A stretch of DNA of 64,000 nucleotides from Spirochaetia bacterium (lineage in GTDB: Bacteria > Spirochaetota > Spirochaetia > SZUA-6 > Bin103). Of this stretch, positions 16,527 through 59,476 are shown piece after piece. The position numbers and the translations under genes were made by a program. The notes under the pieces were generated by a model, which saw only the letters and a program-made list of their open reading frames with translations, did not search any database and was not told the origin of the DNA. Numbering within the stretch: position 1 is the stretch's first letter; each line of letters opens with the position of its first letter. The DNA lies in the NCBI GenBank assembly GCA_965203905.1, contig CBDBDQ010000005.1, forward strand, positions 384,001 to 448,000, written 5' to 3'.

Positions 16527-16536
16527 AGGTCAGCAG

Positions 16537-16612
16537 GGTCACTCCGTGACACGGAAGACCATGAAGACGGCGCATGGGGCAGTGCACGGTGGCCGCCACT
16601 TTCGGACCAGTC
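16537..16612 (+). repeat. 76-bp dispersed repeat, copy A
   Basis: 74/76 identical to reverse complement of 30174-30249; contains palindrome TCCGTGACACGGA. Confidence 0.9.
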
Positions 16613-30173: not shown

Positions 30174-30249
30174 GACTGGTCCGAAAGTGGCGGCCACCCT
30201 GCACTGCCCCATGCGCCGTTTTCATGGTCTTCCGTGTCACGGAGTGACC
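30174..30249 (-). repeat. 76-bp dispersed repeat, copy B (inverted relative to A)
   Basis: Reverse complement matches 16537-16612 with 2 mismatches. Confidence 0.9.
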
Positions 30250-30292
30250 GTGGTGACTCCCCCGAGAACCCACGCCTTCGTGGCGGTATGGT

Positions 30293-30564: not shown

Positions 30565-30771
30565 CGTCTTACAGTATATCTCTCCGGTCTCTCGCCGTCG
30601 AAGTCAGGAACAGGGCCATCACATGCTGAACGACGTCTGAATCCCGTGTCGGCGGGTGATGTTCTAAGATCGCGTGCAGGGTGCGTAGTTCGTTCGCTGT
30701 ACGACGTGTCCAGAAAAGCGGGTTGCCGCCCACCTGCAACGCCGGTCTCCACGATGCGTTGCTTCCATGTC

Positions 30772-31010
30772 GGTGCCGCGCTGCAGGATTCTGTGAGAAG
30801 GTGCCAAAAAAGTGCGCTGAGCACTTGACGGGTTTGGCGCTGCTCGTAACGGCCCCCTGCCGCACGTTCGGGCCCCTCCGACCCTTCGAATATCCCGCCA
30901 CGCCCTCCAGGCCCTCCAGCACCCCGCCAGCGCCGGCCTGCACTCTTCCAGGTGCCCGTCCCGGGACTTGCAGAAACCGGTCATTTCTCAACCATGATTA
31001 TATTTACGCC
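30772..31010 (+). promoter_or_regulatory. Conserved 5' leader of HNH gene, copy 1
   Basis: Collinear with 57474-57708 (CACTTGACG, CCTCCGAC, GCCCGTCC, TATATTTACGCCATG). Confidence 0.7.
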
Positions 31011-32699
31011 ATGGCTGCCGCGACCAGCTTCGCCTCCTCGCTCTCCGGGCTCCCCGACCAGGTGCTGCTGGCGCACACCAGGTTCCTCGTCCTGCACGAG
31101 CAGGCACTGCAGCTCGCCGTCCTCGACCACCTGCGCGAGATCCACGCCCGCCACCTCCACCTGCGCCTCGGGTTCTCCAGCCTGTTCGACTACGCCGTGC
31201 GCGAGCTGGGCTACAGCGAAGGTGCCGCCTGGCGCCGTATCAAGGCTATGCGCCTGTGCTCCGATACCGCCGGGACACGCGAGCGGCTGCAGGACGGCTC
31301 GCTCACCCTGAGCGCGGCGGCGCAGTTGCAGAACACCTTCGATCTCCTGCAGCGCACGGCGACCGCCGCCGCGGACCCCGGCGAGGCACCCGCGGCAGCG
31401 GAGCTGCTGCCGGGCGGCACGGGGTCGGCGCCGGAGGCGGGGGCTGCGGGGACCGCGGCAGCGGCGGCAGCGCGACCGGTGCCGGCGCTCGACGCGGCGC
31501 AGCGGCAGGAGCTGGTGGCGCAGGCGAGCGGCAAGAGCACCCGCGAGGTGAAGCAGTTGTTGGCCGGGGTGGCTCCCGAGCTGGCGCGCCCGGCCGATCG
31601 CATGCGGGCGCTGGGCGAGGGCCGCTGGGAGTTGAAGGTGGTGATCGACTCTGCCTGTCAGTGCGGGATCGAGCAGCTACGGGCACTGCTGTCGCACGTG
31701 GACCCGCACCTGACGCTGGGGCAGCTGGTGGAGCGGCTGGTGCATGACGGCCTGCAGCGCTACGACCCGGGGCGACCGCCGCGCGGGCGCAGAGGTGGGC
31801 GCCGGGAGGCAAGCGCGGGCCAGGCGCCGGAGCCGCAGGCGCAGCAAGGGCCGGCGCGCGGGGCGGCTTCGCCGGCGAAGCGGGGCGTGCAAGAGCAACC
31901 CGGAGTGCCGGCGCCGCCGGAGGGCACTAGCGCCGGTGGCAGCGCCCCGGCGCCGGCAGCGCTGCCAGCAGCGGAATGTGCGCGCGGGATTGGCGGCGCC
32001 CGCACCTCGGCGGTGGCAGCGCTGTCCGCGCCGCCGTCGGGGCGCGAGACTTGGGGCGGCAGCACCCCCGTGCGTGCCAAGCCAGCGGCGGGGGCGCCCG
32101 GCACCACTACTTCGGCGCCGAAGTTGGTGGCTGGTTGCGGGTCCCGCGCCTCCGTACCGACGGCGCCGGCCGACCAGAGCTTGCCGACCGCGCGGGCAGC
32201 GGTGGACCGCGGTCGCAGCGCTCCTTCGCCAGCGAAGCGGACAGGGGCCGCGCAGCGGACAGGGGCGGCGCAGCGGGCAGGGGCGGCGCAGCGGGCAGGA
32301 GCGGCGCAGCGGGCAGGAGCGGCGCAGCGGGCAGGAGCGGCGCAGCGGGCAGGAGCGGCGCAGCGGGCAGGAGCGCAGCTCGATGGCCGTTCGCGGCAGC
32401 AGGCGGCGGCATCCGACCCGTCCTCAGGCAGCGCGCAGCCGTCCCACCGGACGCGCCGATCCCGCTACATTCCGGCACCAGTGCGGCGCGAGGTGTGGCG
32501 CCGCGACGGTGGCTGCTGCAGTTACGTCGATCCGCACAGCGGGCGGCGCTGCGGCTCCCGCTTCCTGCTGGAGCTCGACCACATCGTTCCCTTCGCGCTC
32601 GGCGGCAGCGCCGAGCCGGGGAATCTCAGAATTCGCTGCACTGCCCACCACCGGTTCCGGCATCGGCAGTACGGACCGCCGCCAGACGGGGCCCCGTGA
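31011..32699 (+). CDS. HNH endonuclease with helical DUF222-like N-terminal domain, copy 1
   Basis: LGFSSLFDYAVRELGYSEGAAWRRI N-domain; C-terminal VWRRDGGCCSY...C...LELDHIVP...GG...NLRIRCTAHH. Confidence 0.88.
   Translation: MAAATSFASSLSGLPDQVLLAHTRFLVLHEQALQLAVLDHLREIHARHLHLRLGFSSLFDYAVRELGYSEGAAWRRIKAMRLCSDTAGTRERLQDGSLTLSAAAQLQNTFDLLQRTATAAADPGEAPAAAELLPGGTGSAPEAGAAGTAAAAAARPVPALDAAQRQELVAQASGKSTREVKQLLAGVAPELARPADRMRALGEGRWELKVVIDSACQCGIEQLRALLSHVDPHLTLGQLVERLVHDGLQRYDPGRPPRGRRGGRREASAGQAPEPQAQQGPARGAASPAKRGVQEQPGVPAPPEGTSAGGSAPAPAALPAAECARGIGGARTSAVAALSAPPSGRETWGGSTPVRAKPAAGAPGTTTSAPKLVAGCGSRASVPTAPADQSLPTARAAVDRGRSAPSPAKRTGAAQRTGAAQRAGAAQRAGAAQRAGAAQRAGAAQRAGAAQRAGAQLDGRSRQQAAASDPSSGSAQPSHRTRRSRYIPAPVRREVWRRDGGCCSYVDPHSGRRCGSRFLLELDHIVPFALGGSAEPGNLRIRCTAHHRFRHRQYGPPPDGAP
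32238..32378 (+). repeat. 18-bp coding tandem repeat (R(T/A)GAAQ, about 8 units)
   Basis: CGGGCAGGAGCGGCGCAG units head to tail. Confidence 0.92.
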
Positions 32700-32802
32700 T
32701 CGGCGCTCGCCGGGGTGCGAGTTGGGCGGTTGGCGTCGGTCCGAGGGCTACGGTAGTGACGATTGCAGCCGGCTTGTCGCGTAGCGTGGGATAGTCCTGA
32801 AG

Positions 32803-33855
32803 TCAGGAAGGGCGCTCCGTTACCGTGGCGGTCAGAAGGGCGGCGCGGAATTCCTCCAGCGAGAGGTGCTCTTCCGCCATGATCAGGGTCGAGTGGTACG
32901 GGGTGAAGACGCCGCTGCCGACGCTCATGGTCACCGGTCCGCGGTTGGGCTCCGCCCACAGGCCGCGGGCGCGGGCCACCTCCACGCCGAACAGGTCCAC
33001 CTCACGCACCGATCCCGCGGGAAAGTCGACCGTGACCAGGTGGGCCGGGTCCATGATGCCGCGAATGCCCTCCCAGTACTGGGCCAGGTAGCGGCCGCGC
33101 ACGTCCGGACTGGGCGTCGCCGCCATCGGTCCGAGGTGGCCGTTGCGGAAGAGGTACAGCAGCACCTGGTCGCCGACGGGCAGGTTCTGCGCGACCGGGT
33201 CCGCGGCCAGCAGCAGGGGGCTCCAGTCGGGGTTGCTCAACTCGAAGCGCCGCTGCATGGGGTGGGTCAGTCCGAACGCGCGTGCCATCTGAATCGCATA
33301 AGTGGCGCCGCAGCCGACCCAGTTGGCGCCGAAGGTCACGAACTCCACGGACTCGGGGTCGTAGCGGTACCCGGCGGCGGCGAGCTGGCGATCGAGATCC
33401 GCCGCCCACGCCTTCGATCGCTCCCAGGCCGCCAGCTCGTACGCGGAGACCGGGGCGCCGTGCGCCGCGGCGGCCGCGGCCCGGTCCGCCTCCAGCCCGC
33501 GGCCGAACTCGGCTCCCAGAGCGCGCCGGTTTTCCGCGAGGTCGCCGCCGAGGCGGCATACCAGGCAGCGCGGACCCAGGTGGGCGCGGGCAAACTCGAT
33601 CAGCTCGCGGTTGCCCCTGAGGCCGGTGGGCAGGATCAGGAACGCTTCGTCGTCGCGGTCCGCGATCTCGCGGATCAGCCGCTGCTTCTTCCGCCGCAGC
33701 ACCAGGTCCAGCTCGCGACACGCCGCGGTGCGTCCCGGCCAGTGCTCTCCCCCGCCCCACAGCAGCTCCCGCCGGCGCTGGTCCGCGGGCGCGATCTCGA
33801 TCCAACTGAGGGCGTGCACGCACAGATACAATCGGTTCAAAGCCTTCGGCTGCAT
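32803..33855 (-). CDS. Hypothetical protein
   Basis: 350-aa ORF with genome-typical codon usage and SD AAGGAG; no family recognised. Confidence 0.75.
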   Translation of the reverse strand: MQPKALNRLYLCVHALSWIEIAPADQRRRELLWGGGEHWPGRTAACRELDLVLRRKKQRLIREIADRDDEAFLILPTGLRGNRELIEFARAHLGPRCLVCRLGGDLAENRRALGAEFGRGLEADRAAAAAAHGAPVSAYELAAWERSKAWAADLDRQLAAAGYRYDPESVEFVTFGANWVGCGATYAIQMARAFGLTHPMQRRFELSNPDWSPLLLAADPVAQNLPVGDQVLLYLFRNGHLGPMAATPSPDVRGRYLAQYWEGIRGIMDPAHLVTVDFPAGSVREVDLFGVEVARARGLWAEPNRGPVTMSVGSGVFTPYHSTLIMAEEHLSLEEFRAALLTATVTERPS

Positions 33856-57456: not shown

Positions 57457-57473
57457 GAACCGGCCCACGCCAT

Positions 57474-57708
57474 GCTGCCGGCCGACGATCCCGAAGAAAA
57501 TCCCAGAAAGTTGCAGGAAATCACTTGACGCTTTTTCACCCGCTCATGGCGGCCTTCCATGGGCCGTTCCGGCGCCTCCGACTCTCCAGAGAACACTTGA
57601 CGCCCGCTGGCTCGACAGCGCGCTGCTACGCTCGTCCTGAAGCCTCTCCGACGCCCGTCCGAGACCTGACAGATCATGGTAGTTTCAATCTAATGGTATA
57701 TTTACGCC
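57474..57708 (+). promoter_or_regulatory. Conserved 5' leader of HNH gene, copy 2
   Basis: Collinear with 30772-31010; TGG-TATATT extended -10-like box 6 nt before ATG. Confidence 0.7.
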
Positions 57709-59256
57709 ATGACTAACGTGACCATATCAGCCTCCGAAGAGCTCTTCTCCACCGTGGCCGCGCTCCCCGATCAGGTGTTGCTGGAGCAGACCAGGATGCT
57801 CGCCCGCCACGAGCAGGCGCTGCAACTCAGCGTCCTCGACCACCTGCGCGAGATCGAGGCCCGTCGCCTCTATCTGCACCTCGGCTACTCCAGCCTGTTC
57901 GACTACACCGTGCGCGAGCTGCACTATACCGAGGCAGCCGCCTGGCGGCGTATCAAGGCCATGCGCCTGTGCCGTGAGACCCGCGGCGTCCGCGAGCGGC
58001 TGCAGGACGGCTCGCTGAACCTGAGCAACGCCGCCCTGTTGCAGAACTCCTTCGAGCGCTGGGAGCGCAGTGGAGGCGGTCCGGTCGCTGCCGGATCGGC
58101 GGGAGCCGGACAGGGCGCCGCGGAATCGGCGACAGCCGGCACCAACGCCGCGCCGCGCGCCGGCTCGGCTCCCGCGGCGGCGCCCGGCGAGGCGGCGGGT
58201 GCGCCCTTGCCGGTGCTGGATGCGCACGCCCGGCAAGAGCTGGTGGAGCGCGCGATGGGCAAGAGCACGCGGCAGGTGCAACAGATGCTGGCCGAGGTGG
58301 ATCCCGAGGCGGCTGCGCCCGCCGAGCGGCTGCGCGCGCTGGGGGACGGGCGCTGGGAGTTGAAGGCGGTGATCGACGCCGAATGCCAGCGCGGACTGCA
58401 GCAGTTGCGGGAGCTGCTGTCGCACGTGGATCCACACCTGACGGTCGGGCAACTCGTCGGGCGGCTGGTGCGGGAGGGAGTGGAGCGCTACGACCCGAGC
58501 CGACCCCCGCGCCGGAAGCGGAGGAAGTCCGATCCTGCCGGTGATGAGTGTTCCGCGGAGACAGCGGGACGGGAGACGGCAGATCGCGTTGCCGCTGCGG
58601 CGGAGAACCCGCGCCGGGCCGGGAAGTCTGCGGCGCCGACGACCTCCCCGTCCGCACCTAACCGATCCGTGAAGCCGACGGCAGTGGGCACTTCGCCGGC
58701 CGTCTTGCCAGCAGGCGGAGGCTCTGGGGAAGCTTCGCCCAAGAGAGGCCTCGGGCCGCCGCCGGGCAGCCGTACTCCGGCGCCGAGATACGTAGCGCCG
58801 CGTGCAGAGCGCGCCGGGAGCGCCGGCGATGCGGTGGCGACAGAGCCGACTTCGGCGCCGAAGGTCCGCGTGGCAGCCGGCAGTTCGATCGCGGTTCCGA
58901 GCTCCCACAGCGCGGGATCGGCGGAGCAGACTTCGGCGGCGAAGCTTGACGGGGCCGGCGGCGCGGGATCGACCGCGCGGACTGCGGCGGCGAAGTCAGG
59001 AAAGTCGTCCGGCAGATTGATTCCGGCTGCGGTCAGGCGCGAGGTTTGGCGGCGGGATTCAGGCTGCTGCAGCTACGTCGACCGGCATACCGGGAGGCGC
59101 TGCGGCTCGCGCTTCTTCCTGGAGATCGACCACATCGTGCCGGTCGCGCGGGGCGGCGGCGCGGAGGCGGGGAATTTGAGGCTCCGCTGTGCGGCTCATC
59201 ACCGTTACCGGCACGGTCGGCGGCAGCGCTCCGCGCCGCGAGACTCGGTGACGTGA
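57709..59256 (+). CDS. HNH endonuclease with helical DUF222-like N-terminal domain, copy 2
   Basis: Same three conserved blocks as 31011-32699; C-terminal LEIDHIVP...GNLRLRCAAHH. Confidence 0.88.
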   Translation: MTNVTISASEELFSTVAALPDQVLLEQTRMLARHEQALQLSVLDHLREIEARRLYLHLGYSSLFDYTVRELHYTEAAAWRRIKAMRLCRETRGVRERLQDGSLNLSNAALLQNSFERWERSGGGPVAAGSAGAGQGAAESATAGTNAAPRAGSAPAAAPGEAAGAPLPVLDAHARQELVERAMGKSTRQVQQMLAEVDPEAAAPAERLRALGDGRWELKAVIDAECQRGLQQLRELLSHVDPHLTVGQLVGRLVREGVERYDPSRPPRRKRRKSDPAGDECSAETAGRETADRVAAAAENPRRAGKSAAPTTSPSAPNRSVKPTAVGTSPAVLPAGGGSGEASPKRGLGPPPGSRTPAPRYVAPRAERAGSAGDAVATEPTSAPKVRVAAGSSIAVPSSHSAGSAEQTSAAKLDGAGGAGSTARTAAAKSGKSSGRLIPAAVRREVWRRDSGCCSYVDRHTGRRCGSRFFLEIDHIVPVARGGGAEAGNLRLRCAAHHRYRHGRRQRSAPRDSVT

Positions 59257-59476
59257 GCAAAATGGCAGCGCCGGAGATCGGCTCAGCGCGCGACACATCT
59301 CCTGGGCGCCGAGCCGCGGGCGCCGGGTGTCGCAGCGCTGGTGGCTGTACACGCTGTGGCGTTCGTGTGTGGACTCTTCGCGTGGCAATGCGCCGCCGCC
59401 ATCGCCTCCAGGGTCAATGACTTCCTCCTGCCGCGTTCGGCGTTCGCAGCGCCCGAGCACCCGGAGCGCCCTCGGC

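Follow-up and report, generated by a model that had tools for sequence, protein, structure and literature searches.

The 64,000-nucleotide stretch analysed here (hereafter the window; positions 384,001 to 448,000 of contig CBDBDQ010000005.1 from a Spirochaetia bacterium) contains two dispersed genes for a protein with a C-terminal HNH nuclease domain, copy A (31011..32699, forward strand, 562 amino acids) and copy B (57709..59256, forward strand, 515 amino acids). Copy A is a non-autonomous transposon with an HNH passenger: the gene lies in a complete 2,189-bp element, 30611-32799, which has the ends of an ISAs1-family DDE transposon. The reading that we consider probable is that both genes belong to a selfish HNH-nuclease gene family, with copy A carried within ISAs1-type ends and with promoter-bearing DNA, and no guide RNA, upstream of the coding sequence. 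The finding is a real mobile element, a non-autonomous insertion sequence (IS) derivative with a passenger, and not a new mechanism made of a leader and a nuclease. Two features set it apart: its passenger encodes an uncharacterised nuclease that is under selection, and nuclease genes turn up as passengers repeatedly.

The element of copy A is bounded by imperfect terminal inverted repeats (TIRs; CAGGGCCATC.CATGCT...) of 24 nt, 17 of whose 24 positions are complementary by hand count. The left repeat (CAGGGCCATCACATGCTGAACGAC), of ISAs1 type, occupies 30611..30634 on the forward strand and marks a sharp start of homology in about 40 copies, and the right repeat (reverse complement CAGGACTATCCCACGCTACGCGAC) occupies 32776..32799 on the reverse strand. 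Immediately outside them, the 10-mer AAGTCAGGAA is present at 30601..30610 and, identically, at 32800..32809 as the left and right target-site duplications. The first-pass annotation, made from the letters of the window, had seen neither terminal repeats nor a DDE or tyrosine recombinase; copy A has 24-nt TIRs with a perfect 10-bp direct repeat, and both are of the type that belongs to an ISAs1-family DDE transposon. Both repeats are outside the stretch that copies A and B share, the left one being approximately 400 nt ahead of the ATG and the right one approximately 100 nt beyond the stop codon, and the left one is followed by a sub-terminal spacer of the A lineage (30635..30802, forward strand), which has many indels between copies and is not common to copy B or to the ISAs1 transposon. 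Across the approximately 40 A copies, the homology has sharp boundaries, starting with CAGGGCCATCCCATGCT... or CAGGGCCATCCCATGCTGAACGAC and stopping with ...AGCGTGGGATAGTCCTG or ...GCGTAGCGTGGGATAGTCCTG. The HNH protein is the only open reading frame (ORF) of copy A, and it had no transposase match in NCBIfam or Pfam.

The junctions of copy A were also present in contigs of three sequencing runs from different studies, the left one being bridged in runs X16 and X4 and the right one in run X1, indicating that the insertion is old and shared. In the sister genome G003, where its empty site was sought, the flank has no orthologue (76% over 215 nt). A contig from run X1 skips the element, linking 30580 and 32888 through 22 different letters. 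This single contig, with 30 letters on its shorter side and 90% likeness, is no more than a hint of an empty site.

We then searched the source genome (7.99 Mb, 66% G+C, 5 contigs, 98.7% complete) for inward-facing pairs of the 17-nt ISAs1-type core CAGG[AG]C.ATCCCA[CT]GCT, allowing two mismatches. The search returned 24 pairs, 1,290-4,717 bp apart, and no pair at less than 1,290 bp; an HNH gene was enclosed by 23 of them (three with another element nested inside) and an Rpn-like gene by the remaining one. Perfect direct repeats of 8-10 bp flanked 13 of the 23 HNH pairs, repeats with one mismatch flanked three and no repeats were seen at seven, whereas chance pairs from the same search reached at most 4/9. 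The duplication is 9 bp long in most copies and 10 bp in copy A. Two of the A-type elements, C5:4667874-4672278 and C5:7575718-7580434, are interrupted by an identical insertion (100% over 1,785 nt) that ends GTAGACCGAAT..TTAC; this is a younger IS nested in old HNH elements, and the outer duplications of both are perfect.

Transposase-bearing elements in the sister genomes G001 and G004 have this core at each of their two ends, as copy A does. A 2,164-bp element with A-type ends, of which G001 has four copies and G004 one, encodes an ISAs1-family transposase of 603-605 amino acids (NF033564, 148 bits against a cut-off of 70), and in G001 it is flanked by a 9-bp target duplication, TCCCAACAT. 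ISAs1 ends read CAGGG and come with 8-10-bp repeats (ISfinder), which the A-type ends and duplications match. In G008, the same ends delimit MITEs (miniature transposable elements with inverted repeats) of 140-141 bp with 8-9-bp duplications (83 pattern matches), and the right end of copy A is shared with these MITEs and with cargo elements of G004, in which a DUF222-HNH gene (locus L135) and a PD-(D/E)XK-like gene lie between ISAs1-type ends. In the source genome itself, a Transposase_31 (Rpn-like) gene is found between the same ends in two or three copies. The spread of copy A therefore needs no new mechanism, because its ends and 9-10-bp duplication are those of an intact ISAs1-family transposon in sister genomes. 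Copy A is not an autonomous ISAs1-family IS, as it is without an ISAs1-family DDE transposase of its own; its matching TIRs and its target duplication of like length are those of an ISAs1-derived non-autonomous element. The Rpn-like element is 1,290 bp long, encodes a 342-amino-acid Transposase_31 (Rpn/YhgA-like) protein and was located at C5:5515052-5516341 (L021, 553-1842) and from C5:3261700 onward, the copies being 88% identical.

We propose that each gene of the family would have its own promoter together with a conserved upstream region of approximately 210 nt, and that the gene of copy A, lying between ISAs1-family DDE terminal repeats, would have been pasted in by such a transposase acting in trans, leaving the 9-10-bp duplication. 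Copy B would be an older, separately inserted unit, whose transposon ends, if ever present, are now unrecognisable. The protein would act as a sequence-binding DNA nuclease that serves its own persistence, either as a toxin or defence nuclease like Rpn or as a break-inducing nuclease of the homing type, and not as a transposase.

The two proteins of the window are 46% identical over their whole length (E 3e-132). Three blocks are conserved between them, an N-terminal one, a middle one with ERLRALG.GRWELK...LLSHVDPHLT and the C-terminal HNH domain, and these are separated by two low-complexity linkers, the second of which is long in copy A, that align poorly. At the nucleotide level, the two loci become alike approximately 210-240 nt ahead of the ATG, and the likeness tails off at the stop codon. 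The three blocks with two linkers and the roughly 240 bp of upstream homology ending near the stop had all been noticed at first pass, and both descriptions held. The second linker of copy A contains a tandem repeat of an 18-nt unit, eight times over, that encodes GAAQRA repeats (32232..32375, forward strand). In this interval, contigs of other sequencing runs skip 69-123 nt, indicating that the repeat number varies between strains.

A search of the source genome with the copy B protein gave 89 matches, and block-wise tblastn gave 59 for the N-terminal block, 59 for the middle block and 63 for the HNH block. These group into 67 loci, 54 of which have all three blocks (counted by hand), and two lineages can be distinguished: A, with approximately 40 copies including the one at 31011, and B, with approximately 11 including the one at 57709. 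Collecting the copies and aligning their flanks, as had been suggested at first pass, thus yielded 67 loci and an A lineage with sharp boundaries. The idea of a mobile multicopy family is upheld by the 54 full copies, by the tens of copies in relatives, by the target-site duplication of copy A and by the absence of copy B from its site in a relative. The opposite outcome, in which only two copies would exist at syntenic positions without sharp boundaries, was not what we found.

The family is present in 16 of the 31 genomes searched (E 1e-10), namely in 15 of 18 from the same taxonomic family and in none of the 12 from other families of the order. Matches per genome range from 1 to 76 among the same-family genomes. 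All 80 loci kept from a species-representative collection are titled 'MAG: Spirochaetia bacterium' (MAG, metagenome-assembled genome), and the sequencing runs that hold the window include sponge, coral and biofilm metagenomes. Pairwise identity among A copies has a median of 87.6% and reaches at least 95% in only 2 of 925 pairs. Since there are no young copies and no intact ISAs1-family transposase was found in the assembly, the approximately 40 A-type copies are, by these measures, old insertions. Among the HNH copies of G010, none of 300 pairs is at least 95% identical, and the DDE element copies of that genome share identical match scores.

Copy B is missing from its site in a relative. In G003, the orthologous site, with a flank that is 91% identical, consists of the stop codon of a GNAT gene, approximately 80 unrelated nucleotides and then an ABC permease gene, and the same GNAT and ABC permease genes flank copy B in the window. 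Copy B is therefore an insertion of approximately 2.0 kb (about 57461-59465). The search for empty sites in relatives that had been proposed at first pass thus gave one for copy B. At the left edge of the insertion (57461..57492, forward strand), the first 18 nt bear a tentative likeness to an ISAs1-type repeat, at 14 of 18 positions as counted by eye. Downstream of the gene, approximately 200 nt (59257..59465, forward strand) are absent from the G003 site and not common to other copies. The homology that B copies share as a group begins at about -240 to -275 nt and ends a few bases beyond the stop codon.

Family members are associated with a second kind of transposon end. In G010, most of the 25 HNH loci examined start with GGGCGCACTTCCAA... 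and finish with its inverse, their ends reading GGGCGCAYTTCCAA; the 14-mer GGGCGCACTTCCAA occurs 95 times in that genome, against once for a control. These ends are identical to those of a 1,523-bp element that is present in at least eight copies and whose transposase is 54% identical to an ISKra4-family transposase of the source genome (NF033572, 240 bits against a cut-off of 205). In the source genome, the B1 subgroup (five to six B copies) lies between a solo left end and either a 225-bp MITE or a full copy of an ISKra4-type element. The terminal repeats thus follow the resident DDE element of each genome and not the HNH lineage, which argues against the HNH protein as the transposase. The ISKra4-family IS of the source genome (ends GGGTGCATTC...) was located at C5:2122481-2124038 (L117) and C5:1243292-1244795 (L116), with 225-bp forms, for example, at C5:3698948-3699172, and a derivative of this family has a Uma2-like PD-(D/E)XK nuclease gene as cargo.

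In the proteins, Pfam recognizes nothing but the C-terminal HNH domain (PF01844), which scores 23.9 bits in copy B, above the cut-off of 21.4, and 18.7 bits in copy A, below it. Both proteins have the complete motif C..C...C...DH..P...GG....N...C..HH, and 40 of 45 long ORFs have it complete when read by eye, three of these 40 with AHN for AHH. HNH families of PHROG were matched at 2e-9 to 4e-9 (3.8e-9 for copy A). A sequence search of the PDB returned HNH domains only (ZRANB3, a group II intron maturase, Cas9 and McrA; E 0.004 to 0.94), and the sole match in PADLOC, between the HNH region and a model for type II restriction enzymes, was weak (15-18 bits, E 6e-4 to 3.5e-3). Membership in the DUF222/REP13E12 group had been considered at first pass. 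Neither window protein matched DUF222 (PF02720) at E up to 1, and hhalign against the DUF222-HNH genes of the source genome aligned only the HNH region, over 70 columns (probability 94.8%, E 5.5e-8), so this assignment found no support. The PF02720 model did find nine other genes in the source genome; these form a separate family of canonical DUF222-HNH genes that are approximately 70% identical to one another (for example, C5:764618-766264 and C5:7321984-7323681). The first ~260 residues had no Pfam match in either window protein or in any of 30 distant relatives scanned, and a profile built on these residues had 11,808 matches among representative proteins when E was allowed to reach 0.001, and 622 when the limit was 1e-30; metagenomes hold more than 11,000 sequence clusters of the family. 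A C-terminal HNH domain was detected in 24 of the 30 relatives and DUF222 in none, and the sole source name seen was 'HNH endonuclease'.

Among the A copies, the ratio of nonsynonymous to synonymous substitution rates (dN/dS) is 0.11 for the N-terminal block and 0.22 for the middle block, against 1.08 for the second linker, and the pooled polymorphism ratio (pN/pS) separates the linker, at 0.93-1.46, from the three domains taken as one, at 0.20-0.22, and from the HNH block by itself, at 0.20-0.27. In a neutral simulation with substitutions only, at 7% divergence, 4.7% of copies were free of stop codons; most real copies are intact. These substitution patterns speak for a working nuclease and against a dead passenger, because purifying selection acts on all three folded blocks in tens of copies. 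The tree of the A copies is star-like (terminal branches sum to 2.49 and internal branches to 0.36), from which selection on every resident copy could be read; we do not make this claim, as the four-gamete test shows the tree to be reticulate. Against 324 singleton sites stand 301 informative ones, and 30-36% of site pairs are incompatible in that test, a pattern that points to gene conversion or homoplasy among the copies.

In the reading that we favour, the upstream region is promoter or regulatory DNA, and not a guide RNA. The conserved non-coding leader of copy A (30803..31010, forward strand) is common to copies A and B and to copies in G001, G004, G006 and G007, and that of copy B lies at 57493..57708 (forward strand). 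Copy A has a -10 hexamer, TATATT, at 30999..31004 (forward strand), 6 nt before the ATG, and copy B has TGG-TATATT at 57694-57702, likewise 6 nt before the ATG. Nearly all copies of the source and sister genomes have TATA[CT]T followed, after 5-7 nt, by ATG or GTG. The messenger RNA is predicted to start at the ATG and is thus probably leaderless, and the leader is probably outside the mRNA because the -10 box lies 6 nt before the ATG. Copies of a second genus are without the long leader and have a compact promoter only; in that genus and in G010 it reads TTGACT-17-TATACT, and the scanning tool detected this promoter in locus L038, where the -10 box ends 6 nt ahead of the ATG. In the window's clade, the long leader resembles such a compact promoter pulled apart by approximately 150 nt, and the -10 of copy B is of the TGn extended kind. 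TTGACG within the long leader was tried as a promoter and rejected, the next hexamers being of the TAACGG/TGGCGG type without the usual final T. A small ORF in the leader was also rejected, because a 27-codon frame with an ATG in some copies has lost the ATG in others and single-base indels are common.

A partner RNA encoded in the leader had been suggested at first pass. RNAalifold found no consensus fold in 29 non-redundant leaders (-0.33 kcal/mol in the sense and -2.06 kcal/mol in the antisense direction, that is, a consensus energy of about zero on both strands), and an Rfam search of the leaders at E up to 1 gave only chance-level matches; together with the position of the -10 box, these results speak against such an RNA. 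The broader proposal of a self-propagating unit of leader and nuclease survives in one part, since the stretch of approximately 210 nt does travel with the ORF in several genomes, and fails in the other, since the ends of copy A are of ISAs1 type and its spread needs no new mechanism.

Several observations weigh against the selfish family with ISAs1-type ends that we favour. No intact ISAs1-family transposase was found in the source genome, and PF13808 had no match there; mobilisation in trans is for this reason one that we infer from the sister genomes. Compared with the source genome, the G001 transposase gave only matches of its N-terminal domain in other elements and C-terminal scraps (amino acids 417-513 and 560-593). 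The DDE elements and the HNH elements such as copy A are alike only in their outer 19-24 nt, and the promoter scan of both window leaders returned no two-hexamer promoter. For copy B, neither an inverted repeat on the right nor a target duplication could be detected, and the left ends of the G004 and G006 copies have no recognisable transposon repeat, from which it follows that part of the family moves, or moved, some other way. The absence of young copies means that mobilisation is rare or long past. Finally, strong purifying selection would not be expected for a mere passenger, so the nuclease may take part in the spread. The scrap of amino acids 560-593 (C5:4210700-4213760, L119) is 82% identical and adjoins a repeat-like site (CACGGCGATCCCATGCT), and its neighbourhood encodes a 376-amino-acid protein with an HSDR_N domain (the N-terminal, nuclease-fold domain of restriction enzymes).

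The nuclease could be an active partner of the transposon ends: HNH, Rpn-like, Uma2-like and other PD-(D/E)XK nucleases would repeatedly team up with unrelated DDE ends (ISAs1 and ISKra4), and would be kept intact, with tens of copies to a genome, through breaks and gene conversion or through addiction or defence. We regard this as possible, though unlikely; if true, TnpB and IscB of the IS200/IS605 elements would have in it a counterpart guided by protein, and it would define a class of nuclease-armed non-autonomous transposons. A spread of the homing type, in which the HNH protein would cut resident MITEs, IS copies or defective sister copies with its gene entering through repair of the break or through gene conversion and the ends and duplications being older than the gene at each site, seems to us quite unlikely. 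It would account for one gene unit in three contexts (ISAs1 ends, ISKra4 ends and no ends), for the 301 against 324 sites and the incompatible site pairs, and for selection on the nuclease that continues with no transposase in the genome, and in G008, which gave no HNH match, approximately 40 MITEs with these ends are empty. However, G008 is 88% complete and fragmented, which makes its lack of HNH matches weak evidence, and the source genome has no empty MITE with these ends, as the absence of pairs below 1,290 bp shows. Moreover, no MITE backbone with a fixed insertion point is shared, the interior of the G008 MITE and the A element being alike only in the leftmost 22 nt or so and in 45-55 nt at the right, and no MITE-only allele was found for any A site.

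That the HNH protein is itself the transposase, a new non-DDE cut-and-paste enzyme whose N-terminal and middle blocks would bind the repeats while the HNH domain cuts ends and target, is very improbable. The protein is the sole ORF of the element, is under purifying selection and has spread to approximately 40 copies in a genome where no ISAs1 transposase was found, but a DDE transposon and protein-less MITEs have the same ends and 8-9-bp duplication, the HNH genes of G010 and of the B1 subgroup lie between the quite different ISKra4-family ends, and copy B and the G004 and G006 copies are without such ends. Strand transfer is not known for HNH nucleases. We give very little credence to a leader RNA acting with the nuclease in the manner of IscB/HEARO, in which a structured upstream RNA would guide or regulate the HNH protein, even though the approximately 210 nt upstream are conserved across five genomes and between proteins of only 46% identity, and among NCBIfam models that of IscB matches the HNH region best. 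The score of this match is 21.8 bits, with the cut-off at 175, a RuvC domain is absent from the protein, the leaders show no consensus structure on either strand and only chance-level Rfam matches, the -10 box places the mRNA start behind the leader, and the copies of the second genus have no long leader at all. Two ordinary host paralogues at syntenic, vertically inherited positions would fit the old, shared junctions of copy A in three runs, yet this explanation has practically no chance: 54 full copies, with sharp ends and with duplicated target sites, refute it, as does the empty site of copy B in G003, and the HNH family was not found beyond one taxonomic family (0 of 12 genomes).

Among known systems, copy A most resembles the MITEs and passenger-bearing 'transporter' IS of the ISAs1 family, with which it shares an identical TIR core, an 8-10-bp duplication, the lack of an own transposase and 140-bp protein-less MITEs with the same ends. 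It differs from them in that the passenger nuclease is under purifying selection in approximately 40 copies and in that no intact autonomous partner was found in the assembly, only approximately 20 nt being shared. A literature search of limited coverage found no description of an HNH passenger in IS-derived elements of bacteria. Among the IS200/IS605 relatives, IscB, which has a HEARO/omega RNA, is likewise a transposon-borne HNH gene with a conserved non-coding upstream stretch; unlike it, the present family matches the IscB model in the HNH part only, has no Rfam match or conserved fold, and in copy A has ends that are DDE-type inverted repeats with target duplications.

REP13E12/DUF222-HNH genes of Mycobacterium and other Actinomycetota are described as multicopy, of unknown function and suspected of mobility (the DIVE paper, PMC10589994). 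Like the present family, they are multicopy and have a helical N-terminal part and a C-terminal HNH domain of the same subtype (R..IP...RR....RD..C...DH...GG...N...C..HH), and the DUF222-HNH gene of G004 lies between the same ISAs1-type ends; the proteins of the window differ in having no PF02720 match, in aligning by hhalign over the HNH region only and in having no DUF222 domain in any of the 30 distant relatives. The nearest functional parallel would be the Rpn proteins (YhgA-like, Transposase_31), multicopy nuclease genes long mislabelled as transposases, which show single-gene gain and loss, variable ends and segments of variable repeat number, encode toxic nucleases with an antiphage role and have no inverted repeats or target duplications reported around them (PMC10400941). 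The variable 18-nt repeat, eight times over, in the linker of copy A and the Rpn-like gene between the same ISAs1-type ends in the source genome are points of likeness, whereas the folds differ (PD-(D/E)XK against HNH), an intragenic antitoxin is not known for the present family and, in contrast to the rpn genes in that report, copy A and the Rpn-like element of the source genome do have inverted repeats and duplications. KolobokP elements are eukaryotic DNA transposons in which a His-Me finger nuclease is thought to add a second, break-based route of spread (PMC9587614). They too represent a DDE-type transposon lineage carrying a nuclease of the HNH superfamily but are eukaryotic, encode both transposase and nuclease, have long terminal direct repeats and have no sequence relation to the present family.

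The spread of multicopy HNH genes of the REP13E12/DUF222 type has been unexplained since the 1990s, and one route of multiplication can now be seen in a sister family, which lies between ordinary DDE transposon repeats with target duplications in at least 40 copies. Even long after the last transposition that can be detected, the nuclease domains remain under purifying selection, so the nuclease is not junk. Genes for four further kinds of nuclease, an Rpn-like one among them, are found within the same transposon ends, which links nuclease families annotated as 'putative transposase' to real transposons. This recurring nuclease cargo suggests a general habit of selfish or defensive nucleases, and the roles of the proteins become testable.

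To the left of copy A, we also noted an 84-bp repeat at 30176-30259, present again at approximately 16529-16612 and with 41 matches in the source genome. In each of the four runs mapped, read depth peaks sharply over it and loose ends occur, and it is probably a small MITE-like repeat of another family.

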